Shown: one piece after another, positions 2,850 through 29,113 of the stretch
Layout of the letters: the number at the start of each line of letters is the position of its first letter
Numbering within the stretch: the first letter of the stretch is position 1
From: Deltaproteobacteria bacterium
GTDB taxonomy: Bacteria > Myxococcota_A > UBA9042 > PHBI01 > JACKFB01
DNA: 64,000 bases
Assembly: GCA_020632695.1 (NCBI GenBank)
Contig: JACKFB010000015.1
Coordinates: 1,291 to 65,290, forward strand
Direction: 5' to 3'
The notes under the pieces: generated by a model
Database searches by the model: none
Told to the model about the DNA's origin: nothing
What the model saw: only the letters and a program-made list of their open reading frames with translations
Position numbers and translations under genes: made by a program

Positions 2850-3100
2850 GGGAACACCTTCGTGCCGTGGGTTCGCCAGACTCGGATCGGCGCCGGTGGG
2901 TCGATCGCAAATCCCTTCCATGATAGCCCGAACAGGCTTGTGAACGAAAGGACGGCGCGCTCGTGGCGGCGCCCGGGCGGAGTGGGAGGCGGCGCCCGAC
3001 AGCGGGGCGCAGGCCGGTGCAGAGGACGCGCGGGAGCTGCAGCCGCGCCCGGGCGGGTCTGGCGCAGGGCCGGGTCCGCGAGCCGACGAAGGAGCCCATC

Positions 3101-3538
3101 GTGCTGGACGTGAACACGACGATGCTGATCAGCGCGCCCCCCGCCGAGGTGTGGCGCGCGATCACGGACCTGGGCGGGCACGACGCGTGGAACCCGCTGA
3201 TGCGACGCTTCTCGGGCGGCCTCGAGCCCGGCGGGCGTATCCGGTTCTCCATCCGCCTCGGGCCGGTGTGGTTGCCGGTGTCGGCCCGGGTGATGACGGT
3301 CGACGCGGAGCGCGAGCTGCGCTGGGCGGGGCCGGCGCTCTCGGCGGCGCACCCGCTGGCGCGCGGCGAGCACTGGTTCCGGCTGAGCGCCGACGCCGAC
3401 GGGGGCACGCGCTTCGATCACGGCGAGCGCTGGTCGGGGCTGGTGCCGCGGGCGCTGTGGCGGGTCATCGGGCCGCCGCTTCACGAGGGCTACGAGGCGA
3501 TGAACCGGGCGCTGGCGCGGCGGGTCCAGGCGGGCTGA
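3101..3538 (+). CDS. SRPBCC (START/polyketide-cyclase-like) domain protein
   Basis: The track ORF is 2963-3538. GTG 3101 is preceded by GAAGGAG (3087-3093). VLDVNTTMLISAPPAEVWRAITDLGGHDAWNPLM... is the typical N-terminal strand-helix of SRPBCC proteins. Length about 145 aa. Confidence 0.6.
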   Translation: MLDVNTTMLISAPPAEVWRAITDLGGHDAWNPLMRRFSGGLEPGGRIRFSIRLGPVWLPVSARVMTVDAERELRWAGPALSAAHPLARGEHWFRLSADADGGTRFDHGERWSGLVPRALWRVIGPPLHEGYEAMNRALARRVQAG

Positions 3539-6447: not shown

Positions 6448-7956
6448 TCACCCTTCGGCGTCGCTCTCGTCCTCGAGCACGTGGTGGCGCCGCCCGATGG
6501 CGATGGCGGTGATCAGCCAGCACACCGCCAGCACCATCGCGACGATGACGAAGTGGCGGATGCCGAAGGCCAGCGAGGTGCCCACCCAGACCACCAGCGC
6601 CTGGAGCACGTCGCCCGCGCGCTTCATCACCGTGTCGATGAAGGCCTTGGCCTTGTACTTGGCGGCGCGGCTCGTCACCAAGAAGAGCGCCTGCTGGGCG
6701 GTGTTCTGCAGCGAGTAGTCGATGGAGTTCTCGGCGATCTTGGCGACGCGCGCGACCGCCAGCACCGGCAGCACCAGGATGGCGCCGTAGCCGATGAGCG
6801 CGATGGTCGGCAGCACCATGATGGCGACGCGCACGCCGACGTAGCGGAGGATGCGGCTGACCAGGAAGAGCTGGATGCCGGCGCCGAGCGCGTTCACCCA
6901 GGTGAAGAAGGTCGCGTAGAAGTCGCCGATGTAGGTCTTCTCGAAGCCCTCGCGGAAGGCGGACTCGGCCATGGTGGCGGCGGCACGTCCGGCCTCCCAC
7001 GCTGCGGCCGAGGCCTCGTGGGCGGCGCCCTCGACCATGCGGCTGAGGATGTACTCGCCGGTGGAGTTGACCCAGTTCAGCAGCAGGACCAGCAGGGCGA
7101 TGAGCAGGAGATAGCGGTCGCGACGGATGAGGGTGAGGGCGGTGGGGCCGCCGATGCGGTCGGGGACGGGCTGCTCGGCGCTGGCCTCGCGTGGCTCGAC
7201 GTCGCCCGCGCGCTTGTCGGCGAAGGCGGTGAGCGCCAGGGCCACCAGGAGGATGCCGGCGGCGTAGAGCATGAGGCGGTAGAGCGAGCGGTCGGCGCCG
7301 TCGGCCGTGGCGGAGGGGTCGATGAGCAGGTCGGCGAGCTTGGAGCCGAAGACGGCGCCCGCGCTGGCGCCGATGCCGACGATGGCGAAGAGGCGCTTGC
7401 CCTGGGCGGGGGTGTAGAGGTCGTTGGCGAAGCTCCAGAACTGCGCCAGGACGCTGACGCTGAACACCCCCACCCAGAGGAAGAACACGAAGCCGATGGG
7501 GACGTCCCAGAGCGCCAGGAAGTAGAAGAGGACCAGGTTGGAGGCGAAGAAGAGCCAGGAGGTGGCCATCAGGCGCAGCCTGCCGAAGCGGCGCGCCATC
7601 ACGTCGATGGCCTTGACGACGCCGATGAGCAGCACGGCCTGGCCCGCGGCCGCGTAGCTCTTGAGCTCGGCGCCGCCGCCGACCAGGATCAGCGGCTCGC
7701 GGACGACCTTCACCAGATAGTAGGCGACCAGGACGAGGAACACGTCGAGGGCGAGCACGGTGACCAGCAGGCCCTCGCCCGCGCGCACCTCGGCGAAGAG
7801 GGCGAGGAAGCGCTCGAAGAGGGACTTCTTGCCATTGGGGGACGCGGCCAGGGGACGGACTCGTTTCGGCGCGAGGGCCGGGCAGGGCGCGAGCAGCGAT
7901 GGAAGCACGGGGTATGGTGATTGGCCAGCCCTTGATCCGCGGCGCCGGGTGGGCAA
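6448..7956 (-). CDS. TLC / Npt-type (ATP:ADP antiporter-like) MFS membrane transporter
   Basis: 502-aa polytopic ORF. FFLWVGVFSVSVLAQFWSFANDLYTPAQGKRLFAIVGIGASAGAVFGS matches the FW-x-FAN...(A/G)KR(F/L)(Y/F)...G-x-GA signature region of the TLC nucleotide-transporter family. The start is uncertain: ATG 7956 has no SD, and the conserved part begins near KKSLFERFLALF. Confidence 0.6.
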   Translation of the reverse strand: MPTRRRGSRAGQSPYPVLPSLLAPCPALAPKRVRPLAASPNGKKSLFERFLALFAEVRAGEGLLVTVLALDVFLVLVAYYLVKVVREPLILVGGGAELKSYAAAGQAVLLIGVVKAIDVMARRFGRLRLMATSWLFFASNLVLFYFLALWDVPIGFVFFLWVGVFSVSVLAQFWSFANDLYTPAQGKRLFAIVGIGASAGAVFGSKLADLLIDPSATADGADRSLYRLMLYAAGILLVALALTAFADKRAGDVEPREASAEQPVPDRIGGPTALTLIRRDRYLLLIALLVLLLNWVNSTGEYILSRMVEGAAHEASAAAWEAGRAAATMAESAFREGFEKTYIGDFYATFFTWVNALGAGIQLFLVSRILRYVGVRVAIMVLPTIALIGYGAILVLPVLAVARVAKIAENSIDYSLQNTAQQALFLVTSRAAKYKAKAFIDTVMKRAGDVLQALVVWVGTSLAFGIRHFVIVAMVLAVCWLITAIAIGRRHHVLEDESDAEG

Positions 7957-7985
7957 CCGTGGGGAGACGGACGAGGGAGCGGACG

Positions 7986-9140
7986 ATGGCCTGGCTGATC
8001 GCGGGCGGAGGGATCGGAGGGCTCGCGGCGGCGATCGCGCTCCGGCGCGCGGGGCGCGAGGTGCAGATCTTCGAGCGGGCCGACGACGTGCGGGCGTCGG
8101 GGCAGGGGATCACGGTCTCGGTCAACGCGATGGTGGCGCTGGGCGAGCTGGGGCTGGCCGACGCGGTGCTGGCGGCGGGCGTGCGGCTGAGCGGGGCGGA
8201 GCTGCGACGCGCCGACGGCAGGGCGCTGATGCCGCTGCACATGGACGCGATGGAGGCGGCGCACGGGATGCCCTCGGTGGGCATCCTGCGGGGCGCGCTG
8301 CTGGGGGTGATGCTGGAGGCGATCGGCGCGGAGCGGGTGCGGACATCGGCGCGCTGCGTGGGCTACCGGATGGACGGCGAGGGCGTGGCGATGCGGCTGG
8401 CCGGCGGCGAGGAGGTGCGGGGCGAGGCGCTCATCGGCGCCGACGGCGCGGGGTCGGCGGTGCGGGCACAGCTTCTGGGCGAGGCGGCGCCGCGCTACGC
8501 GGGCTACACCTGCTGGCGCGGCCTGGCGGACGTGGCCGGTGAGGAGCTGGGCGAGGGCGGCTTCTTCGAGATGTGGGGCCGGGGGGCGCGTTTCGGCGGC
8601 ATCCCGGTGTCGGCCGACCGGTTCTTCTGGTACGCGGCGGCCAACGCACCGCGCCGCGGCCGCGACGAGGCAGGCGAGGTGATCCCGAGGCTGCGGGCGC
8701 GCTTCGCCGGCTTCGCCGAGCCGGTGGCCACGCTGCTCGCCCGCACGGCGCCCGAGGGGGTGTTGCGCACCGATATCGAGGACCGCCCGCCCACGGCGCG
8801 GTGGGGCGAGGGGCCGGTCACCCTGCTGGGGGACGCGGCGCACGCGATGACGCCGAACATGGGCCAGGGCGCCAGCCAGGCGCTGGAGGACGCCGTGACG
8901 CTGGGCCGCTGCGCCGAGGGCGCGGTGGCCGTGGCGCCGGCGCTCCGCGACTACGAGCGCGCGCGGCGGGCACGCGCGGCGGGCTTCGTCCACGCGTCGT
9001 GGTGGGCCGGGCGGGTGGCCCAGTGGGAGGGCGGTCTGGCGTGTGCCGCTCGGGACGCGGCGATGCGGGTGGTGCCGCGCGCGCTGATGCGCGAGCTGAC
9101 GGTGCGGGCCGCGGCCATGACGCGGGTGGGGCCCAGGTGA
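7986..9140 (+). CDS. FAD-dependent aromatic-ring monooxygenase (UbiH/salicylate hydroxylase-like, FAD_binding_3)
   Basis: ATG 7986 lies within track ORF 7899-9140. MAWLIAGGGIGGLAAAIALRRAGREVQIFER is a GxGxxG dinucleotide fold. VTLLGDAAHAMTPNMGQGASQALEDA is the conserved FAD/substrate motif. Confidence 0.8.
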   Translation: MAWLIAGGGIGGLAAAIALRRAGREVQIFERADDVRASGQGITVSVNAMVALGELGLADAVLAAGVRLSGAELRRADGRALMPLHMDAMEAAHGMPSVGILRGALLGVMLEAIGAERVRTSARCVGYRMDGEGVAMRLAGGEEVRGEALIGADGAGSAVRAQLLGEAAPRYAGYTCWRGLADVAGEELGEGGFFEMWGRGARFGGIPVSADRFFWYAAANAPRRGRDEAGEVIPRLRARFAGFAEPVATLLARTAPEGVLRTDIEDRPPTARWGEGPVTLLGDAAHAMTPNMGQGASQALEDAVTLGRCAEGAVAVAPALRDYERARRARAAGFVHASWWAGRVAQWEGGLACAARDAAMRVVPRALMRELTVRAAAMTRVGPR

Positions 9141-10225
9141 GCGTGCGAGGGATCCCAGCGGAGGTGCGGCGCCTGGTCGAGGCGGGCATGACCGCGCCGA
9201 CGGGCGAGAACTGTCAGCCCTTCCGCTTCGTCTGGGACGGGCGCGTCCTGGCCGTGACCCATGACCCGGCGCGGGCCCGCCACCGCCTCGACGCCGGCGA
9301 CCACGCGTCGCTCATCGCGTTGGGCTGCATGTGGGAGGCCATGGATCTCGAGGCCAGCGCCCTGGACTTGGGCCTCATCGCGACCCTGGCCGGCTCCGGG
9401 GTGTCGCCGGGCAAGCCCTGGCTCACCCTGGAGCCGACGCCCGCGACCCGCACCGCCGATCCGCTGCGCGCCGCGCTGCCCATCCGCACCACCGATCGCC
9501 GCCCCTTCCAGGGCGGCACCCTGGAGGACGCCCGTGACGCCCTCAGCGCCGGCGGTGTGAAGCGGGAGGGAGAGCCGTATCTGCGCCTGGCCGAGCCGGA
9601 CGACCCGGCGCTGCGCGCCTTCGTGCTGGCCAGCGACGCCGTGCTGTGGCGCGACCCGTGGACCATCCGCGACGCCCTGCGCTGGGTGCGCTACACCGAC
9701 GCCGAGGTGCGGCGCACGCGCGACGGCCTGTCCTGGCGCAACCTCGGCTATCCGCCGGTGGCCTCGCTGGCCACCGCGCTGGTGCGCCGCCTGCCGCCGC
9801 TGCTGGCGCTGGGCCGCCTGGCCGGCGGCCCGCTGGAGACGCGGCGCCTGCTCGCCCGGCAGCTCCGCTCCTCGGCCGCCATCGGCTGCATCGCCCTGCG
9901 CACGCCCGGGCAGGCGGGGCTGGTGGCCGCCGGTCGCCGGGCCATGCGTGCCTGGCTGGCCTTCGCCCGCGCCGGGATGGCCTTCCAGCCACTCTCGCTG
10001 CCCTCGCTCTGCGTCTACAACAGCGTCACCGGGGTGCTGCCCCGCGACCTGCCCGCCGATCTCCGCGCCCACTTCGCCAGCGGCCCCGCGCTGCTCGGCC
10101 GCGCCTTCGACCTGCCCGCGGACGCGGTCCCGGTGTGGATGTTCCGGGCGGGTCACAACGGTCCGCTGCCCCATGAGGCCCGCTCGCTGCGCCTGCCGCT
10201 CGAGGACGTGCTCAGCGCCACCTGA
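9137..10225 (+). CDS. nitroreductase-fold protein, Acg-like (double nitroreductase domain, about 360 aa)
   Basis: GTG 9137 overlaps the upstream TGA (GTGA), so the two genes are translationally coupled. An alternative ATG is at 9188. MTAPTGENCQPFRFVWDG resembles the AP-S-x-N-x-QPW-RF motif of nitroreductases. Size and layout fit Acg-type proteins. Confidence 0.55.
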   Translation: MSVRGIPAEVRRLVEAGMTAPTGENCQPFRFVWDGRVLAVTHDPARARHRLDAGDHASLIALGCMWEAMDLEASALDLGLIATLAGSGVSPGKPWLTLEPTPATRTADPLRAALPIRTTDRRPFQGGTLEDARDALSAGGVKREGEPYLRLAEPDDPALRAFVLASDAVLWRDPWTIRDALRWVRYTDAEVRRTRDGLSWRNLGYPPVASLATALVRRLPPLLALGRLAGGPLETRRLLARQLRSSAAIGCIALRTPGQAGLVAAGRRAMRAWLAFARAGMAFQPLSLPSLCVYNSVTGVLPRDLPADLRAHFASGPALLGRAFDLPADAVPVWMFRAGHNGPLPHEARSLRLPLEDVLSAT

Positions 10226-10922
10226 AGAGCCGCACCGCGCCGGGTCTGAAGCGACAGGCCAGGGCGGCCCGGAACCCCGGGCCCGGGTCCAGATCCTCGA
10301 GCGACCATGGCCCCTCGGCCCCCGGTGCCCCCGGCTCGAAGATGGGGCCATCGAGCGCGCTGGCGAGCCCGACGGTGACCCGGCGCAGCGGGTAGCCCAG
10401 GCCCTGACCCACGGCCTTGATCACGGCCTCCTTGCGGGTCCAGAGCCGCAAGAAGCAGTCTGCGCCGCGGCCCTCCGCGTCTTCGGCCTCCAGCAGCGCG
10501 ACCTCGGCGTCGGAGAAGTGCGAGCGGGCGATGCCGGCCCGTTCGGGGACCTCGCGACGCGCCTCCACGTCGACGCCCAGCGCGCCCCCGCGCCCGATGG
10601 CCAGCAGGGCGAGCCCCTCGGTGTGGCTGAGGTTGAAGTCCGGAGCGCCCGAGCCCTCGAGCGCGGGCTTGCCGTGGGGGCCGAGCGTGAAGCGGAGCGC
10701 CTGGGGGCTCCCGCCCGCGTAGCGCCCGAGCAGCTCGCGCAGCCCGCCCCGCGCGGCCTCCCAGGCCCGGGCGTGACGGGCGAAGCGGAAGCGCGCCGCC
10801 CGCTCGGCCTCGTCGGCGGAGAGCAGCCCGCGCCAGGCGTCCATGCGCTCGGGCGAGCCCGGGGTCGCCCAGGCGATGAGGTGGACCTCCTCGTGGCCGA
10901 GCCGCGCCTCGGACGACAGCAT
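10212..10922 (-). CDS. 4'-phosphopantetheinyl transferase, Sfp type
   Basis: The track ORF is 10212-10961; ATG 10922 (MLSSEARLGHEEVHLIAW) is the more likely start. Motifs: LSADEAERAARFRF, GKPAL...FNLSHTEG, GVDVE, WTRKEAVIKA (W-x-x-KE-A-x-x-K). Confidence 0.8.
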   Translation of the reverse strand: MLSSEARLGHEEVHLIAWATPGSPERMDAWRGLLSADEAERAARFRFARHARAWEAARGGLRELLGRYAGGSPQALRFTLGPHGKPALEGSGAPDFNLSHTEGLALLAIGRGGALGVDVEARREVPERAGIARSHFSDAEVALLEAEDAEGRGADCFLRLWTRKEAVIKAVGQGLGYPLRRVTVGLASALDGPIFEPGAPGAEGPWSLEDLDPGPGFRAALACRFRPGAVRLFRWR

Positions 10923-11128
10923 GGGCCAGGCCGCCCAGCCGCTCGGTCCGGCCGGGCTCAACGCCGGCGCCGCGCTCGTACGCGCCGCGGTTCGCGGTGG
11001 CCGGCGCCGGTCCTTGACGCGGTCCGTGGGGCCGTGCGAAAGCTCGGAGGGTTACACATTTGGGACCATGACCTCTCGGAGGGAGGCAGCGCACCTCTGG
11101 CAAGGAGCGCCGTTTTCGCTCGGCCGCG

Positions 11129-14100
11129 TTGGACGGCCGCCCATACGAGGACGCTCGCGCCATGAGCGAACGTGGCATGAGCATGCGGCTGAGCCCTATG
11201 ATGCACAACCCGCCGAGCGCCGCCGCCTCCGCCGGCCTCCCGCCCGCGGCCTGGAACGCGACCGACCGCCCGCGGCCCGCGGGTCTGCGTCTGCACGACC
11301 TGGTCCAGGCCCAGGTGGACGCCCGCCCCGACGCGGTCGCGGTCGTCAGCGGGCACGGGGAAGCGCTGAGCTACGCTGCGCTCGGCCAGCGCGCCGCCGC
11401 GGTCCAGGCGGCGCTGACGGCGCGTGGGGTGGGGCGCGGCGACCGGGTGGGGCTGGCCGTCGACCGCGGCGCCGAGCTGGTGCCGGCGCTGCTGGGGATC
11501 CTGCAGGCGGGCGCGGCGTGGGTGCCGCTGGATCCCAGCCTTCCCGCGGCGCGCCTGGCCTGGCTGGTCGACGACGCGCAGCTCGCCGCGCTGGTCACCG
11601 ACCCGGCCGGCGACGCCGCGCTGACGGACGTCGAGGTGCCCCGGGTGCGACTCGGCGAGCTGTCCTCGACCCCGGCCGCAGGCCCGGCGCCGGCGCCGGA
11701 GCCGGCCGAGCCCGACGACGTGGCCGTCCTGATGTACACGTCGGGCTCCACCGGCCGGCCCAAGGGCGCGTTGCTCACCCACCGCGGGCTGGTCAACCTG
11801 GTCCTCGGCTGGGCCGAGGAGCCGGGCCTGGGGCCGGAGGACACGATGCTGGGCCTCTCCAGCATCAGCTTCGACATGTCGATCCTCGACGTGTTCCTCC
11901 CGCTCTCGGTCGGGGCGAGGCTGCGGCTGGTGGACCGGGCGACGGCGCCCGACGGGCTGGCCCTGGCGCGGCTGGCCGAGCAGGCGCAGGCCTCCTTCAT
12001 CCTGGCGACCCCCTCGACCTGGCGCCTGCTGCTGGCGGGCGGCTATCGGCCGCCGCGCCCGGTGACCGGCGTGGCGGGCGGCGAGGCGCTGACCCAGGAC
12101 CTGGTGGCGGCGTTGTTGGAGCTGGGCGTCCGGCTCTACAACGGCTACGGCGTGACCGAGGCCTGCGCCTGTACCTGCCTGTGGCGTGTCACCGACGCGG
12201 CCGCGCCCATGCGCATCGGCGCGCCCTCGCCCAACACGAGGGCGTGGGTGCTGGGGCCGGAGGACGAGGTGCTGCCGGTCGGGGTCGAGGGCGAGCTGGT
12301 CCTCGGCGGCGTGGGCGTGGGCTTGGGGTACCACCGTCGCGCCGAGCTGACGGCCGAGCGCTTCACCCCGGACCCGGAGCGACCCGGTCAGCGCCGCTAC
12401 CGCACGGGGGACCGCGCCCGCTGGGAGCCGGAGGGCGTGCTGAGCTTCGTGGGGCGCGACGACGACCAGGTGAAGGTGCGCGGCGTGCGGGTGGAGCTGG
12501 GCGAGGTGGAGGCCGTGCTGCTCGAGGCGCCGGCCGTGGTGGAGGCGTGCGTCGTGCTGAGCGACCGCGGCCCGGGCGACCCCCAGCTCGTCGCGTTCGC
12601 GGTGCTGGCGGACGCGGCCGACGACGCGCTGGAGACGGCGCGGCGTCACCTGGCCGAGCGGCTCCCGGCTGCCTTCGTGCCCGCGCGCATCCACGCCGCC
12701 GACGAGCTGCCGCGCACCGCGAGCGGGAAGCTCGACAGGCGAGCGCTGGTCGAGCGCGAGGGCAGGGGGCTCGCCCCGGTGCGCTCCCGGGTGAGCCCGG
12801 CCCCGGGGCTGGAGGCCCGCATCGCCGCGCTGGTGGCCGAGGTGCTCGGGCTCGGTGACGTGGGCGCGACCGACCCCTTCGTCGCGCTCGGCGGTGCGTC
12901 CCTGGCGGCCACGCGCCTGCGCCAGCGGCTGCGCGACGAACTCGGCATGGAGATCCCCCTGGCGCGGATCCTCGCTGGCGGCTCGCCCCGCGAGCTGGCG
13001 GCCGAGGCCGGCGGCGCCGAGGCCGAGCCCGGGCCGGCGCCCCTGCCGCGCGACCGCCCGCTGCCGCTGAGCGCCGAGCAGGCCCAGCTCTGGTTCATCC
13101 AGGCGCTGGACCCGGCGAGCGTGGCGTATCACACGCCGCTCTCCGTCGCCCTGGAGGGGCGGCTGGATGAAGCCGCGCTGGTCACCGCCTGGGCGGCGCT
13201 GCTGGAGCGGCACGAGGTGCTGCGCAGCCGCTGGCGCCTGGTGGACGGCGTCCCGTCGCAGGAGGTGGCGCCCGGCGCGCCCGAGCCCCTGCCGGTGTGG
13301 GCGCTGGACGCGCTGCCCGAGCCCGAGCGGGGCGCCCGCGAGGCCGAGCTCGAGCGGGCGGTCCACCTCGAGCCCTTCGACCTCGAGCGGGGGCCGGTCG
13401 TCCGGGCGGCGCTCTTGCGCTACGGGCCAGAGCGTCACCGGCTGGTCGCCTGCCTGCACCACATCGCCTCCGACGGGGCGAGCCTGGCCGTCCTGCAGGC
13501 CGATCTGGGCGCGCTCTACGCCGCGGCGACGGGGCAGGCGCCGCCGCCTGCGCCCCTGGCCGTGCAGATCGCCGACGTGGCGGCCTGGCAGGCGGGTCGT
13601 GACCACGGCGCGGACGAGGACCTCCGCGCCTGGCGCCGCCGGCTCGACGGGGCCCCCGAGCGCCTCGCCTTGCCGGGCGCCCGCGTGCCGCCGCCCCGCC
13701 GCGACGAGCGCGCGATGGCGTGGCCGGTGGAGCTCGGCGGCGAGGGGGTCGACGCGGCGAGCCGCGCGCTGGGAGCGACGCCCTTCGCGGTGCTGCTGGC
13801 GGCCTTCGGCGCGCTGCTGCGGGTGGAGACGGGGCAGGGCGACCTTGTGCTCGGCACCCTGGTGGCCGAGCGCGATCGACCCGAGACGGCCGCGCTGATC
13901 GGGCACCTGGCCAGGACGGTGGTGCTGCGTCTGGATGTCTCGGGCGAGCCGAGCTTCGGCGCGCTGGTCGAGCGCACACGCTCGACATTGCTGGAGACCT
14001 TGAGCGCGGCCCCCGTCCCCTTCGATCGGCTGGTGGCCGCCCTGAGCCCGGAGCGCGGCCAGGGTCAGCAGCCCCTCTTCCAGACGGTGTTCGCCTGGCA

Positions 14101-17100
14101 GGACCCACCGCTGGAGCCCACGCGTCAGGGCTCGCTCGCCATGCAGGCCCTGGAGGCGTTCCACGGCGCCGCCCCCTTCGACCTGCTGGTCCAGTGCTGG
14201 CGGTCCGAGGCGGGCTACGTCGGCAGCGTCATCCACCGCACCGACCGCCTGCCGGCCGAGGCGGGCCGCGCGCTGGCGCTGCGGCTGCAGGCGCTGGTCT
14301 CGGCGCTGACTGCGGACGTGGAGGCGCCGGCCTTCGCGCCGCGGGCGGCGGACCTGGCGCTGCAGGCGCGGATCCTGGCGCGCCCGGGCGTCCTGGACGC
14401 GCACGTGGGGCCGCGGCCGCGCCGGGACGGGGGCGTGGACAGGGTGGCCTGGGTGGTCCAGGAGTCGCCCGCCCCGCTGGAGCCCGAGCACGACGTCCGC
14501 CTGCTGCCGGTGGCGCGCCTGCCGCTACGCGAGGACGGCCGCGTCGACCGCGACGCGCTGCGCGATGAGCCGCTGCTCGACGACCGGGCGCTCGCCGCGC
14601 TGGCGGGCGACCCGGAGACCGCGCGGGCGTTGGTGGTGTCCTTTTCCCGCCGCCGGCCGGCGCTGCACCTCGAGACGCTGCTCGACGACGCCCCACTCAC
14701 ACCCGCCACCGCAGAGGCGCCCCCCGGGCAGAGCCCCGAGCCCGAGCGGGCCGCGCCTCGGGCTTCCGCCCCGCTGGCGCTGCGCGAGGGGCCGCCGCTG
14801 GTCATGCCGGCCGACGCGCCCACCGACCTGCCCGCCGCGCTGCGGCGCGCCGCTCGGCAGGCGCCCCAGCGCGGAGTGACGCACCTGGAGACCGACGGCA
14901 GCGAGCGCTTCGTCTCGTGGCCCGAGCTGCTGGCCACCGCCGAGCGTGTGGCCGCGGCGCTGCAGGCCGACGGGCTGCGTCCCGGCGACGCGGCGCTGCT
15001 GGTGTCGGACCGCTCGGCCGACTTCCTGGCCGGCCTGTGGGGCGCGCTGCTGGCCGGCGTGGTGCCGGTGCCGATGGCCCCCACCGCGCGCTGGGAGCCC
15101 GAGGTCGGCCAGGCTCAGCGCCTGGTCGGCGTCTACCGCATGCTCGGCGACCCGCCCATCCTGGCCGGCGGCGGCGTCGGGCAGGGGCTCGACGCCGCCC
15201 GCGACGCGCTGGGGATCCCCGACGCCCGCGTCCGCGACATCGAGGCGCTGGCCCGGACGCCGGGCCGGCCCGCGCCGGTGGCCCTCGAGCCCGACTCGCC
15301 CGCCATCTTCCTCCTCACCTCGGGCAGCACCGGCGTCCCCAAGGCGGTCACCCACGTCCAGTCCACGGTGCTGACCATGCTGGAGGCCTACGGGCGGCGG
15401 CACGGGTTCGGCGAGGACGAGGTCTTCCTCAACTGGCTGGGGCTCGACCATGTGGCGCCGCTCTTCATGGTCCACCTCAGCGCCGTCTGGCAGCGCGCCA
15501 GCCACGTCAACGCGCCCACCGCCCGCTTCTCGGCGGACCCGGCCCTGGCGCTGGACTGGGCGACCCGCTTCGGCGCCACCTCGACCTTCATCGCGAACTT
15601 CGCCTTCGGCCTCATCGCGGACGCCGCCCAGGGCGCGCCCGCCGGCCGCTGGGACCTGAGTCGCTTCCGGGTGCTGTCCAACGGGGGCGAGTGCATCGTC
15701 GCGCGGACGGCCCGCCGCTTCCTGCAGGTCCTGGCGCCGCACGGGCTGCCCCCGGAGGCGATGGTCCCCATCTGGGGGATGTCCGAGACCGGCTCGGCCA
15801 CCATCACCGCCCTGGACTTCCGGCTCGAGACCTCGTCGGACGACGACCCCTTCGTCCCCATCGGCGACCCGGTCGAGGGCTTCGCCATGCGGGTGGTCGA
15901 CGGCGAGGGGACGCTGCTGCCCGAGGGCAGCATCGGGCGCCTGCAGGTGCGCGGTGACCAGCTGCAGCGCGGCTATCACCTCCGGCCCGAGGCCAACCGC
16001 GAGAGCTTCACCGAGGACGGCTGGTTCGACACCGGCGACCTGGCCTTCATCGACGCCCGCGGCATGAGCATCGCCGGGCGTGCCAAGGACGTCATCATCA
16101 TCCACGGCGTCAACTTCTACAGCCACGACATCGAGGCGGTGGTCGAGGGGGTGCCGGGCGTCTCGCGCTCGTTCGTGGCGGCGTGCCCGGTGCGTCCGGC
16201 CGGCGCCGACACCGATCAGGTCGCCATCTTCTTCGCGCCCGAGGACGCCGACGACGAGGCGCTGCCCGAGCTGTGCGCGCGGATCCGCGGGGCGGTGGCG
16301 CGCGAGGCCGAGGTGGCCGTGTCCTACCTGCTGCCGGTGGCCCGCGAGAGCATCCCCAAGACCGAGATCGGCAAGATCCAGCGCCCGCGGCTGCGAAAGG
16401 CCTTCGAGGCCGGCGAGTTCGACGCGCTGAGGCTGCGGGTCGACGCCCTGTGTCACGGGCCCAGGACCGTGCCCGACTGGTTCTTCGCGCCGGTGTGGCG
16501 GCCGCGAGAGGCGGCGCCCGACGCGGAGCCGCCCACCGCGCTGCTGGTGGTCGGCGGCGCGCCCGCGGTGGCCGGGGCGCTGGGCCGCGCGTCGTCCGAC
16601 GCGGGGGCGGGCGCCGTCGAGCGGGTCTCGGTGGAGGCGCTGGCCGACCGCCTCGAGCCGTGGCGCTCGGGGGCGGGCGAGCGCCCGGCGGTGGTGCTGC
16701 TGGCGCCGGAGCCCGGAGAGGCCCCCCGCGATCCCGAGGCGCTGCTGGAGGCGGCCCTGGATCGGTGTGAGGGCCTCATCGCCCTGGCGCGCGCGCTCGA
16801 GCCGGCCGGCGAGCGGCCGCTGCGGCTGGTGGTCGAGACGCGCCTCGCCGAGCTGGCCGCGCCGGGCGACCCGGGCTCGGTGGCCGACGCGCCGCTGCTC
16901 GGCCTCTGCGCCAGCCTCGGGCACGAGGTCCCGGCCCTGGACCTTCGGCACGTGGACCACGACCTGCAGCACCCCGACGCGGTGGCCGCGTTGATGCTCG
17001 ACGAGCTCCGGCTGGCCACGCGCGGCGAGGTGGACGTGGCCTGGCGCGGAGGGCGCCGGCTGGTGCGCCGGCTCGACCGGGTGCGCTTCGAGCCGGGGGC

Positions 17101-18319
17101 CCGCCTGCCCGCGCCGCCCGCGCGCTGGGTGCTCACCGGGGGGCTCGGCGGCGTGGGGCGGGTGCTCGCCGAGCGCCTGCTGGAGCGTCCGGGCACCCGG
17201 CTCTTGCTCGTGGGGCGGCTCTCCGAGGCCGAGCTGCCGCCGGAGCGACGCGACGCCCTGGCGGCGCTGCGCGCGCGGGGCGCCGTCGACCATGCCGCGG
17301 CCGACGTGGCCTGCGCCGGGGCACTGGCCGAGGTCGTCGCGGCCCAGGAGCGCCTCTGGGGCGCTCCGGTCGACGCCGTGGCGCATCTGGCGGCGGTGAT
17401 GCCGAGCGGCCTCGTCTCCCGGCTGGCCCGCCCCGAGCTGGCGGCGGCGCTGCGCCCGCGGCTGCTCGGCACCGTCCGGGCGGCCGCGCTGCTGGACGAT
17501 CGCCCGGGGGCCCGATTCTTCGACCACAGCTCGGTGAACGCGCTCTTCGGCGGCTTCGGCGCAGGCGCCTACAGCGCCGGCTCCCGCGTCGGCGAGTCGG
17601 TGGTAGCGGGCCTGCGCGCCCGCGGGGTCCGGGCGAGCTGGCTGTGCTGGTCGCTGTGGGCCGATCGGGGCCTCACCCGTGGTCTGGCCACCCAGGATCT
17701 GGCAGCCCGCCGCGGCTTCCTGCCCCTCGACGCCCGCCGCGGCGCCGACTCCCATGCGCTGCTGCTCGCGTACGACACGCCCCAGGTGCTCATCGGGCTC
17801 GACGACGGCGCGCCGCCGGTGCGACGCCTGCTGAGCGCGGGCCCCCTCACGACCCGCGCGCTGCGGGCCGACGCGCTCCCGCCCGGCGCCGACCTCCACG
17901 ACAGCGCCGGCCTGCCGCTGCCGCTGAGCCGCGGCTCGCGCGGGGAGCGGGCCGAGGGGGCGCGCCCCGCGCGGGGTGCCGGCGGCGAAGCCCGCGACGA
18001 GGTGCAGCGCCGCGTCGCCGCGATCTGGCGCGACCTCTTGGAGGTCTCCGACCTCGGCATCGACGACAACTTCTTCGACCTGGGGGGGCACTCGATGCTG
18101 CTGGCCCGCCTCATGGCGCGGGTGGAGCGCGAGTTCGGCCGCGCCACGCCCATGGTGGTGCTCTTCGAGAACCCGACGGTCCGGTCGCTGGCGGCGTGGC
18201 TCGCCTCCGGCGACGGCGCCCCCCCACCGCCCGTCGGCGGCGCCGGGGCTCGTGATCGCGCCGCCCAGCAACGGCGTGCGCTGAACCGCCCCCGCCCGCC
18301 GCGCCCGTCCCGGAGTTAG
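11129..18319 (+). CDS. NRPS-like megasynthase: A - PCP - C - (orphan A C-subdomain) - acyl-AMP-ligase-type A - KR - carrier protein
   Basis: Motifs in order:
- A3 motif LMYTSGSTGRPKG, 11729-11767.
- A10 motif PRTASGKLDRRAL.
- PCP motif LGGAS, Ser codon 12899-12901.
- C-domain motif HHIASDG, 13457-13477.
- Second ANL domain: FLLTSGSTGVPKA (15308-15343), WGMSETGS, GRAKDVIIIHGVNFYSHDIE, PKTEIGKIQR.
- KR Rossmann motif TGGLGGVG, 17135-17158.
- Carrier motif LGGHS, Ser codon 18092-18094. Confidence 0.9.
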   Translation: MDGRPYEDARAMSERGMSMRLSPMMHNPPSAAASAGLPPAAWNATDRPRPAGLRLHDLVQAQVDARPDAVAVVSGHGEALSYAALGQRAAAVQAALTARGVGRGDRVGLAVDRGAELVPALLGILQAGAAWVPLDPSLPAARLAWLVDDAQLAALVTDPAGDAALTDVEVPRVRLGELSSTPAAGPAPAPEPAEPDDVAVLMYTSGSTGRPKGALLTHRGLVNLVLGWAEEPGLGPEDTMLGLSSISFDMSILDVFLPLSVGARLRLVDRATAPDGLALARLAEQAQASFILATPSTWRLLLAGGYRPPRPVTGVAGGEALTQDLVAALLELGVRLYNGYGVTEACACTCLWRVTDAAAPMRIGAPSPNTRAWVLGPEDEVLPVGVEGELVLGGVGVGLGYHRRAELTAERFTPDPERPGQRRYRTGDRARWEPEGVLSFVGRDDDQVKVRGVRVELGEVEAVLLEAPAVVEACVVLSDRGPGDPQLVAFAVLADAADDALETARRHLAERLPAAFVPARIHAADELPRTASGKLDRRALVEREGRGLAPVRSRVSPAPGLEARIAALVAEVLGLGDVGATDPFVALGGASLAATRLRQRLRDELGMEIPLARILAGGSPRELAAEAGGAEAEPGPAPLPRDRPLPLSAEQAQLWFIQALDPASVAYHTPLSVALEGRLDEAALVTAWAALLERHEVLRSRWRLVDGVPSQEVAPGAPEPLPVWALDALPEPERGAREAELERAVHLEPFDLERGPVVRAALLRYGPERHRLVACLHHIASDGASLAVLQADLGALYAAATGQAPPPAPLAVQIADVAAWQAGRDHGADEDLRAWRRRLDGAPERLALPGARVPPPRRDERAMAWPVELGGEGVDAASRALGATPFAVLLAAFGALLRVETGQGDLVLGTLVAERDRPETAALIGHLARTVVLRLDVSGEPSFGALVERTRSTLLETLSAAPVPFDRLVAALSPERGQGQQPLFQTVFAWQDPPLEPTRQGSLAMQALEAFHGAAPFDLLVQCWRSEAGYVGSVIHRTDRLPAEAGRALALRLQALVSALTADVEAPAFAPRAADLALQARILARPGVLDAHVGPRPRRDGGVDRVAWVVQESPAPLEPEHDVRLLPVARLPLREDGRVDRDALRDEPLLDDRALAALAGDPETARALVVSFSRRRPALHLETLLDDAPLTPATAEAPPGQSPEPERAAPRASAPLALREGPPLVMPADAPTDLPAALRRAARQAPQRGVTHLETDGSERFVSWPELLATAERVAAALQADGLRPGDAALLVSDRSADFLAGLWGALLAGVVPVPMAPTARWEPEVGQAQRLVGVYRMLGDPPILAGGGVGQGLDAARDALGIPDARVRDIEALARTPGRPAPVALEPDSPAIFLLTSGSTGVPKAVTHVQSTVLTMLEAYGRRHGFGEDEVFLNWLGLDHVAPLFMVHLSAVWQRASHVNAPTARFSADPALALDWATRFGATSTFIANFAFGLIADAAQGAPAGRWDLSRFRVLSNGGECIVARTARRFLQVLAPHGLPPEAMVPIWGMSETGSATITALDFRLETSSDDDPFVPIGDPVEGFAMRVVDGEGTLLPEGSIGRLQVRGDQLQRGYHLRPEANRESFTEDGWFDTGDLAFIDARGMSIAGRAKDVIIIHGVNFYSHDIEAVVEGVPGVSRSFVAACPVRPAGADTDQVAIFFAPEDADDEALPELCARIRGAVAREAEVAVSYLLPVARESIPKTEIGKIQRPRLRKAFEAGEFDALRLRVDALCHGPRTVPDWFFAPVWRPREAAPDAEPPTALLVVGGAPAVAGALGRASSDAGAGAVERVSVEALADRLEPWRSGAGERPAVVLLAPEPGEAPRDPEALLEAALDRCEGLIALARALEPAGERPLRLVVETRLAELAAPGDPGSVADAPLLGLCASLGHEVPALDLRHVDHDLQHPDAVAALMLDELRLATRGEVDVAWRGGRRLVRRLDRVRFEPGARLPAPPARWVLTGGLGGVGRVLAERLLERPGTRLLLVGRLSEAELPPERRDALAALRARGAVDHAAADVACAGALAEVVAAQERLWGAPVDAVAHLAAVMPSGLVSRLARPELAAALRPRLLGTVRAAALLDDRPGARFFDHSSVNALFGGFGAGAYSAGSRVGESVVAGLRARGVRASWLCWSLWADRGLTRGLATQDLAARRGFLPLDARRGADSHALLLAYDTPQVLIGLDDGAPPVRRLLSAGPLTTRALRADALPPGADLHDSAGLPLPLSRGSRGERAEGARPARGAGGEARDEVQRRVAAIWRDLLEVSDLGIDDNFFDLGGHSMLLARLMARVEREFGRATPMVVLFENPTVRSLAAWLASGDGAPPPPVGGAGARDRAAQQRRALNRPRPPRPSRS

Positions 18320-18323
18320 CGCC

Positions 18324-21300
18324 TTGTCGACCCCCAACGACTCGCCCGCCGACGACGTCTTCGACGACGGCGCCCAGCTCGTCGCCGTCATCGGCATGGC
18401 CGGGCGCTTCCCGGGCGCTCCCGACCTCGAGGCCTACTGGGAGCTCATCGCCTCCGGGCGCGAAGGCACCACCCGCTTCGACGCCGCCACGCTGCGCCGC
18501 GCCGGCGTGCCCGATGCGCTCATCGCCGACCCGGCCTTCGTCCCCGTCCGCGGCGTCATCGAGGACGCGGACGCCTTCGACGCCGCCTGCTTCCGCATGA
18601 GCCCACGAGAGGCCGAGCTGACCGATCCCCAGCATCGGCTCTTCCTCGAGACCTGCGCCGCGGCGATGGAGGCCGCCGGGGTGGTCTCGACCCCGGACGG
18701 GCCCCGTGTGGGGGTCTACGCCGGCTGCTCGACCGACACCTACCTCACCGAGGTGCTGCTGCGCGACCGCGCGCTGCTGGACAGCCTCGGCGGGATGCAG
18801 GCGGTGGTCGGGAACGACAAGGACCACCTCGCCACCCGCGTCGCCTACAAGCTGGACCTGCGAGGGCCGGCGCTCACCGTCCAGACGGCGTGCTCGACCT
18901 CGCTGGTGGCCATCCAGCTCGCCTGGCAGGCGCTGACGACCTGGCAGTGCGACATCGCCCTGGCAGGCGGCGCCTCGGTGACCGTGCCGATGATCGACGG
19001 TCACCGACCCCAAGAGGGCGGCATCGTCTCCCACGACGGCCACACGCGCACCTTCGACGCGCGGGCCACGGGCGCCGTGGGCGGCGATGGCGTCGGGGTG
19101 GTGGTGCTCAAGCGGCTCGACGACGCGCTGGCGGACGGCGATCCCATCCGGGCCGTGCTCCGGGCCGTGGCGACCAACAACGACGGCGCGGCGAAGGTCG
19201 GCTACACGGCGCCCGGAGTCACCGGCCAGGCCGCGGTCATCGCCGACGCGCTGCTGGTCGCGGGCGTCGAGGTCGAGAGCATCGGCTACGTCGAGGCCCA
19301 CGGCACCGCGACGCCGCTCGGCGACCCCATCGAGGTGCGCGCGCTCACCCGCGCCTTCCGCGAGCACACGCAGCGCCGCGCCTTCTGCGCGCTGGGCTCC
19401 GCGAAGAGCGCCATCGGCCACCTCAACGCGGCCGCCGGCGTGGCCTCGTTCATCAAGACCGTGCTGGCGCTGGAGCACGCCACCCTGCCGCCGGTGGTGG
19501 GCTTCGAGACCCCGAATCCCCAGCTCGAGCTGGACACCTCGCCCTTCCGCGTGCCCCGGGTGGCCGAGCCGTGGCGCGCCGAGGGCGGGCCCCGGCGGGC
19601 GGGGGTGAGCTCCTTCGGCGTGGGCGGCACCAACGCACACGCGATCCTCGAGGAGGCGCCGCCCGAGGCGCGCCCGGTGGCGGACGACGAGCCCGACCGG
19701 CCGCGTCTGCTGATGCTCAGCGCCCGCTCGGAGCCCTCGCTCGACGCCCTCGCCGACAAGCTCGCCGGCTGGGTCGACGGCCACCCCGAGACCTCCTTCG
19801 CGGCGCTCACCGCCACCCTGGCCGCGCGCCGCCCCTTCGCCCACCGCCGCGCCTGGGTGGCCTCGTCGCTGGGCGAGGCCCGCCAGCAGCTCGCCGGGCC
19901 GCCTGCAGCGGCGGGCGTGGCGCGCCAGGAGCAGCCTTCGCGCATCGCGCTGCTCTTCCCCGGCCAGGGCTCCCAGCGACCCGGCATGGGCGACGGGCTG
20001 TACCGCGGCGACCCGCGCTTCCGCGGCCACATCGACCGCGTGGCCGAACTCTTCGAGCCCCTCATCGGCCGTGACCTGCGCCAGCTCCTCTATCCGGCGC
20101 CCGAGGCCCTGGCGGAGGCCACCGAGCTGCTGGAGGATCAGCTCCACGCGGGGCCCGTGCTCTTCGCCATCTCCTACGCATGCGCCATGCTCTGGATCGA
20201 CCGCGGCGTGGCGCCCGACCTGCTCCTGGGCCAGTCCACCGGCGAGTACGTGGCGGCTGCCATCGGGGGTGTGCTCGAGCTCGAGGACGCCGCGCGCCTG
20301 TTCACGGCGCGAGCCCGCCTCATGGACTCCGTCCCCCGCGGCTCGGTGCTGCACGTCGCCCTGCCGCCCGACGAGCTGACCCCGCTGCTCGCCGACGGCA
20401 CCTGGCTGGCGCTGGTCAACGGCCCGCGCGCCTGCGTGGTCACCGGCCTGCCCGAGCCCGTCGCCGAGCTGGCCGCGCGGCTCGAGGCGCGCGAGGTGCC
20501 CAACCGCCGCGTCCGGGTCTCGGTGCCGGCCCACAGCCCGCTGCTGGCGCCCATCGCCGACGCCCTCGCCGCCGAGGCTCGGACGGTGAGGCTGTCGCCG
20601 CCTCGCATCCCCATGATCTCCGGCACCACGGGCCGTCCGCTCACCGACGCCGAGGCCACCGATCCCGATTACTGGGTGCGGCACCTGCTCGAGCCGGTGG
20701 CCCTGGCCCGCGCCATGGAAACCCTGGGCCAGGACGAGGGCGTCGTGCTGGTGGAGGCCGGCCCCCACCGCTCGATGAGCGCCCTGGCCAGCTACAACCT
20801 CCCCGGCCACGCCGTCCTGGCCAGCCTGCCGGCCGAGGACGATCCGGCGGCCCGCGACCCGGAGCTGGCCGCCCGTCACGAGCTCAGCGGCCTCGCCGCC
20901 TTGTGGGTCGCCGGCGCCGCGCTCCCCGCGGAGGCCCTCGTCGGTCCCGGGGCGCCGCGCCGCGTGGCCCTGCCGCCGACGCCCTTCGAGCGCACCCGCT
21001 ACTGGCCCGAGGCGCGCGACGCTGCCACCGCCACTCGGTCCGCGGCGTCCGCGGCGTCCGCGGCGACCGTCGCCCCGCGCCGGCACCCGCGCCCCGCCAT
21101 CTCCACGCCCCACGTCCCGCCGCGCACCGACGCCGAGCGCCTCGTGGCCGAGATCGTCTCCGACCTGCTCGGCATCGACGGGGTGGGCGCCGAGGACGAC
21201 TTCTTCTCGCTCGGCGGCAGCTCGCTCATCACCCTGCAGCTCATCCAGCAGATCAAGAGCCGCCTCGGCGCCGACCTCCCGCCCGCCGCGGCCTTCCAGG

Positions 21301-22319
21301 GCCTCGATGTCGCGCGCATGGCCGCCTTCCTCGACGACACCCGGATCACGCCGGCCTCGGGCGTGCGCGCCGCCGGCCCCAGCTCGCGCCTGGGCCCCAA
21401 CATCGTCCCGATCCGGCCGGAGGGCAGCCTGCCTCCGCTCTTCTTCGCCCACCCGGCCGCCGGCATCGTGTTCCCCTACTTCGAGCTGGCGCGCCGCCTG
21501 GGCCCCGACCAGCCCTTCTACGGCCTCCAGGCCGCGGGCCTCGACGGCGACGAGGAGCCGGACGCCCGGGTCGAGGAGATGGCCGCGCGCTACCTGCCGC
21601 AGATCCGCGCGATCCAGCCCGAGGGCCCCTACTACCTGGGCGGCTACTCCTTCGGCTGCTACGTCGCCTACGAGATGGCCATGCGCCTGCAGGCGGCTGG
21701 CGCCGAGGTGGCGTTGCTGGCCCTGGTGGACGAAGGCGCCCCGGTGGACGGCCACCGCCCGACCGTGTCGGAGATAAGCCGCCTGTGGCTGGGCAGCGCG
21801 GGGCGCAGCTTCCTCGGGCACCTGCGCGACTACCTGTACCTGCGCTCGCGACAGGGCGGCGGCGACCCCTCCGAGCCGAGGCGGAGCGCCGCCCGGAAGC
21901 TGCTCGGCGGCCGCCGCGCCGGGCTGCGACAGACCACCCTGCGCGCCATGCTCGAGCGCTCGGCCATGGCGGCGCTCCTGCCCACCGACGCGCACGCCAC
22001 CGCCCTGGGCCAGCCAGCCATGCGCCCGCTCTTCGAGCTGCTGCTGCTGCACCTCAAGGAGACCTTCCGCTATGCGCCGCCGGGGGGCTTCCGCGGCCCG
22101 GCGACGCTCTTCAAGTCGGACTGGTCGGTGGAGCGCCCCTTCTGGGAGCGCGTCGACTCCGATCCCACCCTGGGCTGGGCGCGGCTCATCGCGAGCCCGA
22201 TCTCCATCCGCAGGATCTCCGGCGATCACCTCGCCGTGCTGCGCGTCCCCCACGTCGCGCGGTTGGTCGAGGAGCTGGTCCAGGCCCTGGCCGAGGCTCG
22301 CGAGGCGCCCCCCGGATAA
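18324..22319 (+). CDS. type I PKS module KS-AT-ACP-TE
   Basis: TTG start lies 4 nt after the upstream TAG, with GGAG at 18312-18315. Motifs in order:
- KS: TACSTS (Cys codon 18891-18893), EAHGTATPLGDPIE, GSAKSAIGHL.
- AT: GQSTGE, 20229-20246.
- ACP: LGGSSL, Ser codon 21222-21224.
- TE: GGYSFG, Ser codon 21648-21650. Confidence 0.9.
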   Translation: MSTPNDSPADDVFDDGAQLVAVIGMAGRFPGAPDLEAYWELIASGREGTTRFDAATLRRAGVPDALIADPAFVPVRGVIEDADAFDAACFRMSPREAELTDPQHRLFLETCAAAMEAAGVVSTPDGPRVGVYAGCSTDTYLTEVLLRDRALLDSLGGMQAVVGNDKDHLATRVAYKLDLRGPALTVQTACSTSLVAIQLAWQALTTWQCDIALAGGASVTVPMIDGHRPQEGGIVSHDGHTRTFDARATGAVGGDGVGVVVLKRLDDALADGDPIRAVLRAVATNNDGAAKVGYTAPGVTGQAAVIADALLVAGVEVESIGYVEAHGTATPLGDPIEVRALTRAFREHTQRRAFCALGSAKSAIGHLNAAAGVASFIKTVLALEHATLPPVVGFETPNPQLELDTSPFRVPRVAEPWRAEGGPRRAGVSSFGVGGTNAHAILEEAPPEARPVADDEPDRPRLLMLSARSEPSLDALADKLAGWVDGHPETSFAALTATLAARRPFAHRRAWVASSLGEARQQLAGPPAAAGVARQEQPSRIALLFPGQGSQRPGMGDGLYRGDPRFRGHIDRVAELFEPLIGRDLRQLLYPAPEALAEATELLEDQLHAGPVLFAISYACAMLWIDRGVAPDLLLGQSTGEYVAAAIGGVLELEDAARLFTARARLMDSVPRGSVLHVALPPDELTPLLADGTWLALVNGPRACVVTGLPEPVAELAARLEAREVPNRRVRVSVPAHSPLLAPIADALAAEARTVRLSPPRIPMISGTTGRPLTDAEATDPDYWVRHLLEPVALARAMETLGQDEGVVLVEAGPHRSMSALASYNLPGHAVLASLPAEDDPAARDPELAARHELSGLAALWVAGAALPAEALVGPGAPRRVALPPTPFERTRYWPEARDAATATRSAASAASAATVAPRRHPRPAISTPHVPPRTDAERLVAEIVSDLLGIDGVGAEDDFFSLGGSSLITLQLIQQIKSRLGADLPPAAAFQGLDVARMAAFLDDTRITPASGVRAAGPSSRLGPNIVPIRPEGSLPPLFFAHPAAGIVFPYFELARRLGPDQPFYGLQAAGLDGDEEPDARVEEMAARYLPQIRAIQPEGPYYLGGYSFGCYVAYEMAMRLQAAGAEVALLALVDEGAPVDGHRPTVSEISRLWLGSAGRSFLGHLRDYLYLRSRQGGGDPSEPRRSAARKLLGGRRAGLRQTTLRAMLERSAMAALLPTDAHATALGQPAMRPLFELLLLHLKETFRYAPPGGFRGPATLFKSDWSVERPFWERVDSDPTLGWARLIASPISIRRISGDHLAVLRVPHVARLVEELVQALAEAREAPPG

Positions 22320-22391
22320 CGGCGCCGCCGAGGAAGGCCTTTTCATCTCGCGGCAATGCGGCGAACCTGGGCCTCCGGAGGGACTGTCACC

Positions 22392-27722: not shown

Positions 27723-27729
27723 TCGCGCC

Positions 27730-29091: not shown

Positions 29092-29113
29092 TTGCTCGCC
29101 CGGCCGCTCGCTC

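Follow-up and report, generated by a model that had tools for sequence, protein, structure and literature searches.

Two described hybrids of nonribosomal peptide synthetase (NRPS) and polyketide synthase (PKS) come close in domain order to the gene cluster analysed here, which lies at positions 7986–22319 of a 64,000-nt stretch of contig JACKFB010000015.1 (the whole stretch is called the window below; G+C about 75%). In antimycin biosynthesis AntC is C1-A1-T1-C2-A2-KR-T2, built from condensation (C), adenylation (A), carrier (T) and ketoreductase (KR) domains, and AntD is KS-AT-ACP-TE, that is ketosynthase, acyltransferase, acyl carrier protein and thioesterase (PMC3869250). CorA, the coralinone synthetase of Corallococcus, is A-T-C-A-T-KS-AT-ACP-TE; its dipeptidyl beta-keto acid spontaneously undergoes decarboxylation, cyclisation via the free amine and oxidation, which yields 5-methylpyrazinones that act as morphogens, and 110 cor-like clusters are known, some of them with embedded KRs that were read as beta-ketone reductases (PMC10979478). 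The depsipeptide modules of composition C-KAL-KR-T are also close at the level of the single module. Their 2-keto-acid AMP ligases are recognised by a Gly-Met motif together with a hydrophobic residue at the position of Asp235 (PMC11253843 section 2.5; PMC13643306); such ligases are called KALs, and in that of Dol15D the exchange Val219Asp abolished activity (PMC13643306). Five-domain C-Ax-KAL-KR-T modules are known from PyrG and Dol15D, and four-domain C-KAL-KR-T modules (e.g. CrpD-M2) retain a partial Ax with motifs A6–A10 that completes the pseudo-Asub fold of StsA (PMC13643306), Asub being an A subdomain. StsA is the A-KR-T keto-acid module of a cereulide-type synthetase, and its structure 6ULW carries the PDB title 'Adenylation, ketoreductase, and pseudo Asub multidomain structure of a keto acid-selecting NRPS module'.

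The window cluster is intact and belongs to an uncultured activated-sludge Myxococcota lineage. Genes were resolved with a frame plot of G+C at third codon positions (GC3) and with Pfam and NCBIfam hidden Markov model (HMM) scans, and residue numbers of gene 1 domains refer to the open reading frame (ORF) 11129–18319, of 2396 aa. From the HMM calls the order is A-T-C-[A-subdomain remnant]-ANL-KR-T in gene 1 and KS-AT-ACP-TE in gene 2, in agreement for both genes with the motif-based architecture of the original prediction, which had been made from the letters alone. We find that the second activating domain of gene 1 has the features of a KAL, and we consider it likely that the two genes encode a three-module hybrid line that combines an amino acid with a 2-keto acid, which is reduced, and with a single malonate unit.

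The second activating domain and the ketoreductase

When the C-terminal half of gene 1 was compared with PDB sequences, StsA (6ULW) was matched with an E value of 3.6e-143, McyG with 1e-105 and the fatty acyl-AMP ligase (FAAL) FadD32 with about 1e-24, and the match to StsA spans the adenylation, KR and carrier regions. An AlphaFold2 (AF2) model of the remnant, the ANL domain and the KR (mean pLDDT, the model's per-residue confidence, 84.5) gave the same ranking in Foldseek, with 6ULW at the top (E 8.7e-81, ~1085 columns), then McyG, and the FAALs after these at about 1e-39. All motifs quoted in the original prediction are present in the translation, namely NGYGVTEACACT at aa 338–349 (the A5 region of A1, window 12140–12175), WGMSETGS at aa 1549–1556 and GRAKDVIIIHGVNFYSHDIE at aa 1650–1669. 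In the alignment WGMSE falls onto FGMSE of StsA (G414-M415), such that Gly-Met replaces Gly-Pro in A5, and the Val of LDHV falls onto StsA I306, a hydrophobic residue at the position equivalent to Asp235. Both hallmarks, the Gly-Met and the hydrophobic residue, are kept in 21/21 aligned homologues.

Because StsA is the best match in both sequence and fold, and because both hallmark residues are present and conserved, we conclude from sequence and model that the second activating domain is a KAL within a C-KAL-KR-T depsipeptide module and not a FAAL. The original prediction had correctly set this domain apart from canonical amino-acid A domains, and its suggestion that a keto acid may be loaded mid-line and then reduced gives the best reading of the StsA matches and hallmark residues. 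Its description of the domain as FAAL-like does not hold, and we reject a FAAL identity, as the FAALs rank well behind StsA and McyG both by sequence and by fold.

The orphan A-subdomain noted ahead of this domain is real. Residues 1073–1144, taken together with their orthologues, match the Asub of A1 with an hhalign probability of 96.9% (E 1.9e-10). The A10 Lys of this segment is replaced by Arg (GRVDR) in the window, and by Arg or other residues among orthologues. One homologue (P0129) has a complete extra A domain where the window has the remnant, and so displays the five-domain C-Ax-KAL-KR-T form. By its sequence, the orphan segment is the known Ax/pseudo-Asub remnant. The KR is located between the adenylating domain and the T2 carrier according to Pfam, and it retains the NADPH motif TGGLGGVG and the catalytic Ser and Tyr.

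Loading module, gene 2 and the proposed assembly line

The first A domain (A1) finds LgrA as its top PDB match (E 9e-150) and retains Asp235 (FDMS) and the A10 Lys; from these sequence features it is a canonical amino-acid A domain that serves as the loading module. No Condensation match was found ahead of A1, which begins about 45 residues from the N-terminus of gene 1, and since there is no starter C domain the amine of the first residue should stay free. Its specificity code, derived by hand only, is about D-M-L-L-V-G-G-A-C-K, with small, hydrophobic pocket residues, and the substrate is probably a hydrophobic alpha-amino acid.

In gene 2, Pfam places the KS at aa 20–394, the AT at 544–820, the PP-binding domain at 940–1003 and the Thioesterase at 1038–1316, and there is no beta-processing domain. 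Eight orthologues conserve the Cys-His-His of the KS, the Ser/Asp/His region of the TE and the serines of the carriers, all of which are intact in the window. The TE has the motifs GYSFG ... GDH, and its nearest PDB match is the depsipeptide-cyclising TE of the skyllamycin NRPS (7CRN). The specificity motif of the AT is VSVPAHS (20517–20537), which is FabD-like and unlike HAFH or YASH, and the domain matches the fabD and mdcH models. Since the motif resembles VSVPSHC of E. coli FabD, malonyl-CoA is the likely extender. Gene 2 orthologues are 46–73% identical, and a protein of composition C-A-T-KS-AT-ACP-TE (P0341) shares 47% identity with gene 2 across 84% of its length; no named characterised PKS was returned by the homologue search with gene 2.

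In the assembly line that we propose, the Sfp-type phosphopantetheinyl transferase (PPTase) would prime the three carrier domains, A1 would charge T1 with a probably hydrophobic alpha-amino acid whose amine is left free, and the KAL would put a 2-keto acid on T2, where the embedded KR would reduce it to a 2-hydroxyacyl thioester. The Ax/pseudo-Asub segment ahead of the KAL would be a structural remnant and not a catalyst. The C domain is predicted to form an ester between the aminoacyl group on T1 and the hydroxyl so created, which we infer from the type of the acceptor module. The KS of gene 2 would then add one malonyl unit to the depsi-dipeptide, with no beta-processing to follow, and the TE would release an aminoacyl-O-hydroxyacyl beta-keto acid. 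By analogy with CorA, this acid might lose CO2 to leave an alpha-hydroxy methyl ketone esterified with the aminoacyl group, and condensation of amine and ketone might close a 3,6-dihydro-2H-1,4-oxazin-2-one ring; we put forward a 1,4-oxazin-2-one product as a tentative possibility, and the original prediction's statement that the product is not predictable from the sequence alone stands. The Acg-like nitroreductase-fold FMN protein encoded upstream could dehydrogenate such a ring, and the FAD monooxygenase (HpxO/NicC/PhzS-like) could hydroxylate it. Ox domains dehydrogenate azolines.

Several observations weigh against this assembly line. To our knowledge no natural 1,4-oxazin-2-one has been described. 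The KR is the weakest link of the proposed mechanism. Its catalytic Lys is replaced by Arg (LRPRLLGT in the window, YEAKVYGT in StsA) and the Asn of YxxxN by Ser (17450–17584), so that the catalytically complete KR of a KAL module, with Lys, Ser, Tyr and Asn, is not what the window has. In the myxobacterial clade (n=9) the Lys position is R in 6/9, G in 1/9 and K in 2/9, and Asn is replaced by S, C or G in 9/9, whereas the wider KAL-KR-T homologues, including PyrG-type proteins, have Lys in 12/12 and Asn in 10/12. With Lys and Asn substituted across the clade, reduction is not assured. A crippled or repurposed KR would leave the ketoacyl group unreduced and no ester would form; the line would stall or make another product (e.g. 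only a ketoacyl-malonyl chain), or the KR and pseudo-Asub would act as a scaffold. We consider this rather unlikely. Within the clade the Gly motif for NADPH binding, a conserved Arg and the catalytic Ser and Tyr do not vary, and because the domain is otherwise well conserved we presume that the KR works. In some short-chain dehydrogenases/reductases Arg can partly stand in for Lys. Moreover, A1-T1-C would be left without an acceptor, yet these domains are intact and conserved in all orthologues.

By sequence the KAL is about equally near to McyG, which activates phenylpropanoids or Phe, and to the A domain of StsA (the E value for McyG is comparable to that for the StsA A domain alone), and a non-keto substrate is therefore conceivable. 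The second ANL domain would then load a fatty or an aryl/phenylpropanoid acid in a FAAL- or McyG-like manner and the KR would come into play afterwards, on the beta-ketone that the PKS generates, in line with the FAALs being the next structural neighbours and with the reading of the embedded KRs of cor-like clade II clusters as beta-ketone reductases (PMC10979478). We give little credence to this scheme, as a plain acyl group on T2 offers the upstream C domain no nucleophile and the KR precedes T2 within the NRPS and is not in the PKS. A keto-acid module is also what is expected from the Gly-Met motif, from Val in place of Asp235, from the Ax remnant and from the A-KR-pseudoAsub fold.

The hand-derived code of A1 likewise counts against the proposal, and we know of no code that it fits. 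It is also unlike the Thr code, DFWNIGMVHK, which is relevant to a different, antimycin-like scheme: Thr or Ser would be the substrate of A1, and its side-chain hydroxyl would be used by the TE to close a nine-membered dilactone. The domain order past C1 is that of AntC/AntD (PMC3869250), and the skyllamycin TE, the nearest to that of gene 2, cyclises a depsipeptide. We hold such a macrolactone to be improbable, given the small, hydrophobic pocket residues and the lack of a starter C domain; none of the Pfam-scanned ORFs at 1686–36385 is an AntE-like crotonyl-CoA carboxylase/reductase, an AntM-like KR, an AntF-L starter gene or a 3-aminosalicylate gene.

Two further departures concern A1 and the AT. 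As stated in the original prediction, the A5 motif of A1 is deviant: it reads YGVTE, with Val where Pro is near-universal, and Pro is changed in all orthologues, to Val in close and to Met in distant ones. In LgrA, Pro to Met at this position modestly increased keto-acid activation (PMC11253843). The active-site motif of the AT is GQSTGE (20229–20246) and not GHSxG; distant orthologues have GHSTGE. Together with the KR changes, the deviant motifs in A1 (A5) and the AT (GQSTG) could be taken to mean that we are looking at a relic, decaying or silent, without a product. This we find scarcely credible: both megasynthase genes have a GC3 of about 0.95 along their length and neither frameshifts nor internal stops, and full-length intact orthologues in seven other contigs, at 40–73% identity, carry the same deviant motifs, which argues for selection rather than decay.

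Cluster layout, neighbours and relatives

The span 7986–22319 holds five genes, for a FAD monooxygenase, an Acg-like protein, the PPTase, the NRPS and the PKS (Table 1). As the outline of a cluster the span proposed originally is right; as the extent of two megasynthase genes it is not, since its first 3 kb (7986–10961) are taken up by three accessory genes, of which that for the PPTase is on the minus strand. The 4-nt gap between the two collinear megasynthase genes was confirmed, with the TAG stop of gene 1 at 18317–18319 and the TTG start of gene 2 at 18324, and two orthologous contigs have an identical gap. The start of gene 1 is ambiguous between TTG 11129, ATG 11162 (the database call) and ATG 11198/11201, where orthologues start. 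A frameshift in gene 1 was first suspected because four plus-strand ORFs in different frames cover 7899–12858, and was ruled out when the GC3 plot and Pfam resolved separate accessory genes and one intact NRPS ORF.

Table 1. Coordinates of genes and domains in and beside the NRPS-PKS cluster (window positions).
Feature	Position	Strand	Size, motif or start	Basis of the call
TLC/MFS-type transporter	6448-7956	-	502 aa	Pfam TLC E 1.8e-11, MFS_1; GC3 pattern
Group A FAD-dependent monooxygenase	7986-9140	+		Pfam FAD_binding_3 E 4e-24; NCBIfam HpxO-like
Acg-family (nitroreductase-fold) FMN oxidoreductase	9137-10225	+		NCBIfam Rv3131_FMN_oxido E 3e-29, under family cut-off
Sfp/HetI-type 4'-phosphopantetheinyl transferase	10212-10961	-		Pfam ACPS E 1.3e-15; NCBIfam HetI 121 bits, under cut-off; GC3
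NRPS gene 1	11162-18319	+	2385 aa from ATG 11162; ORF opens TTG 11129	
A1, amino-acid adenylation domain	11306-12730	+		TIGR01733 511 bits; Pfam AMP-binding aa 60-402, AMP-binding_C 459-534
T1 carrier	12806-13003	+	LGGAS, Ser591	Pfam PP-binding, two stretches
Condensation domain	13061-14215	+	HHIASDG	Pfam Condensation aa 645-1029, E 6e-55
Ax remnant, degenerate A-subdomain (pseudo-Asub N-terminal part)	14345-14560	+		hhalign; AF2 match to 6ULW
KAL, 2-keto-acid AMP ligase-type adenylation domain	14858-16420	+		NCBIfam AMP-binding aa 1244-1764; PDB StsA 6ULW/6ULX and McyG as top matches
KR	17126-17665	+		Pfam KR aa 2000-2179, E 6.6e-24; aligned to StsA and SpnB KRs
T2 carrier	18011-18202	+	LGGHS	Pfam PP-binding aa 2295-2358
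PKS gene 2, KS-AT-ACP-TE	18324-22319	+	1331 aa	Pfam
Ser/Thr-kinase-like - STAND (AAA_16) - GAF - class III cyclase	22356-27722	+	1788 aa	Pfam

The neighbours named in the original prediction were recovered by the HMM scans. The GTG start of the Acg-like gene overlaps the TGA of the monooxygenase gene in a GTGA at 9137–9140, and the PPTase gene is divergent to the NRPS gene. The monooxygenase, a putative tailoring hydroxylase, has HpxO (3RP6), tropone 2-monooxygenase, NicC and PhzS as its top PDB matches, and the Acg-like protein finds no relative by sequence in the PDB. Outside the span lie the TLC/MFS transporter gene upstream, a lineage-specific neighbour and possible exporter candidate, and, 36 nt past the PKS gene, a very large kinase-STAND-GAF gene that the original prediction did not describe. 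An Rfam scan of the window gave no match.

Synteny was assessed from tblastn of window proteins against related loci and from called genes. NRPS and PKS genes adjoin in 7/7 contexts that reach past the NRPS (L001, L002, L007 = L003, L009, L010, L011 and L004/5), and in six of the seven (L001, L002, L007, L009, L010 and L011) a Pkinase-AAA_16-GAF orthologue, 40–68% identical over >1400 aa, lies directly downstream of the pair. The accessory genes are shared less widely: the Acg-like gene stands beside the NRPS in L002 and L010 (74–75%) and in the more distant L009 (53%), the FAD monooxygenase gene occurs in L002 and L010 (72–74% identical), the PPTase gene in these two and also in L001, and the transporter gene is syntenic in the close relative L010 only. 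A far-reaching possibility is that NRPS-PKS and kinase-STAND-GAF protein are one conserved unit that makes a 5-methyl-1,4-oxazin-2-one or an open-chain aminoacyl acyloin ester, that the co-transcribed, GAF-containing STAND kinase/cyclase senses the product or controls its synthesis, and that the odd KR and A1 residues are clade adaptations. Taken as a whole we think this unlikely; if true, the coralinone morphogens of myxobacteria would have an 'oxa' counterpart in this product, whose scaffold is not known from nature.

The output domains of the kinase-STAND-GAF proteins vary, with a cyclase in the window, whereas L007 and L011 have HisKA/HATPase together with a cyclase-like piece. The kinase-like motifs of the protein deviate as well (HRDVNPGN; DFD for DFG). 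Distant members of the NRPS-PKS family are flanked by genes for patatin-like phospholipases: in L004/L005 such a gene (20870–23974) stands where the kinase gene would be expected, and in L011 they lie at 26522–29110, after the kinase gene, and at 2135–3340.

A search of 5.8 billion proteins returned two near-full-length orthologues of gene 1 at about 60% identity, and the C-terminal half of the gene found the order A-T-C-KAL-KR-T in further metagenomic proteins and stand-alone or PyrG-type KAL-KR-T widespread in actinomycetes. One of these homologues (P0154) led to a pyridomycin-like trio, C-A-T, a KS-AT-methyltransferase PKS and C-A-A-KR-T, in Streptomyces sp. 5-6(2022) (JALXFU010000004.1, L006). 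A scan of species-representative genomes gave 66 loci, the best a Myxococcota metagenome-assembled genome (MAG) at 63% identity, and activated-sludge metagenomes contain the sequence of the window itself. The closest loci are MAGs labelled Myxococcota, bar one Alphaproteobacteria and one Enterobacterales label, and the five loci checked for composition (L001–L005) have 72–76% G+C. The taxonomic labels of these two records look doubtful: both the one labelled Alphaproteobacteria (L007, JACKEY010000006.1) and the one labelled Enterobacterales (L011, CAZSAT010000012.1) carry the cluster of Myxococcota MAGs, and the former is isolate HK-STAS-MYXO-46, with about 75% G+C over the same region (L003).

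Farther along the window, synteny with L010 extends beyond the cluster to a HerA/DUF87-like NTPase gene at 29857–32274 (minus strand, 805 aa), whose L010 counterpart is 80% identical. Arrays of 6/12/18-nt repeats lie in coding regions at 37396–37936, 42680–42927, 44341–44774, 52056–52535 and 53108–54045; their units are of the GAGACC/GACACC type and complements, with a predicted low-complexity translation rich in Asp/Glu/Thr/Gly/Pro, and the arrays at 52–54 kb may be the reason why this bin has an AT skew of -0.46. A 158-nt unit is tandemly duplicated at 51664–51972 (2.0 copies, 99% identical), just past a gene that ends at 51636.

Comparison with known systems

The cluster is interpretable rather than exotic, because a KAL, an Ax/pseudo-Asub remnant and an embedded KR are all described module types, and the original prediction went too far in finding no characterised pathway for the module order: it is the order of AntC/AntD minus C1, and that of CorA with module 2 swapped. 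Three points make it of interest. The first is the combination, in uncultured Myxococcota, of a free-amine loading module with a keto-acid module and a minimal PKS-TE, which is new and which, by analogy, would predict a depsi counterpart of the coralinone signalling molecules. The second is the clade-wide change of two KR catalytic residues, which is relevant to the mechanism of such KRs and to the question whether those embedded in cor-like clusters were misread as beta-ketoreductases. The third is that a giant kinase-STAND-GAF protein is a conserved partner of the pair. The searches made found no cluster of exactly this composition with an assigned product, and a full-text literature search for the domain order A-T-C-A-KR-T found nothing.

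With the C-KAL-KR-T modules of StsA (cereulide), CrpD-M2 (cryptophycin), Dol15D-M2 (dolastatin 15) and PyrG (pyridomycin), the window shares the KAL hallmarks, the KR before the carrier and the Ax/pseudo-Asub remnant after C. It differs in that Lys is changed to Arg and Asn to Ser or Cys in the KR of its clade, in the pocket stretch of the KAL, which is LDHVAPLFM where LDHVGGIVM is common, and in that its module feeds a PKS directly, whereas the others feed another NRPS module or a TE. FAALs such as FadD32 and the olefin synthase FAAL resemble the window KAL in the ANL fold and in the stretch GRxKD..I..G.N.Y..DIE, but the Gly-Met motif and a KR/pseudo-Asub context distinguish KALs from FAALs.

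The likeness to antimycin AntC/AntD is one of domain order, with an equal order from A1 to TE and an equal split into an NRPS and a PKS gene, and both the window AT and the AntD AT have a non-canonical specificity motif (PMC3869250; PMC6117356). The window line has no N-terminal C1 and hence would not accept an acyl (aryl) starter, its A1 looks unlike a Thr-specific domain, and the host is a member of the Myxococcota and not a Streptomyces.

CorA shares with the window a loading A-T without a starter C domain, a single elongation module, the minimal KS-AT-ACP-TE and a myxobacterial origin. The supplements of the coralinone paper hold no listing of KR-containing cor-like architectures. Here too the likeness lies in domain order: the window line is split over two genes, no corB-like peptidase was seen beside it, and it is accompanied by Acg-like and FAD oxidoreductases and by the STAND kinase. 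Module 2 of the window is KAL-KR-T and not the amino-acid A-T of CorA, and with a keto-acid module in this place an ester link and an oxazinone ring would be expected instead of the pyrazinone of CorA.

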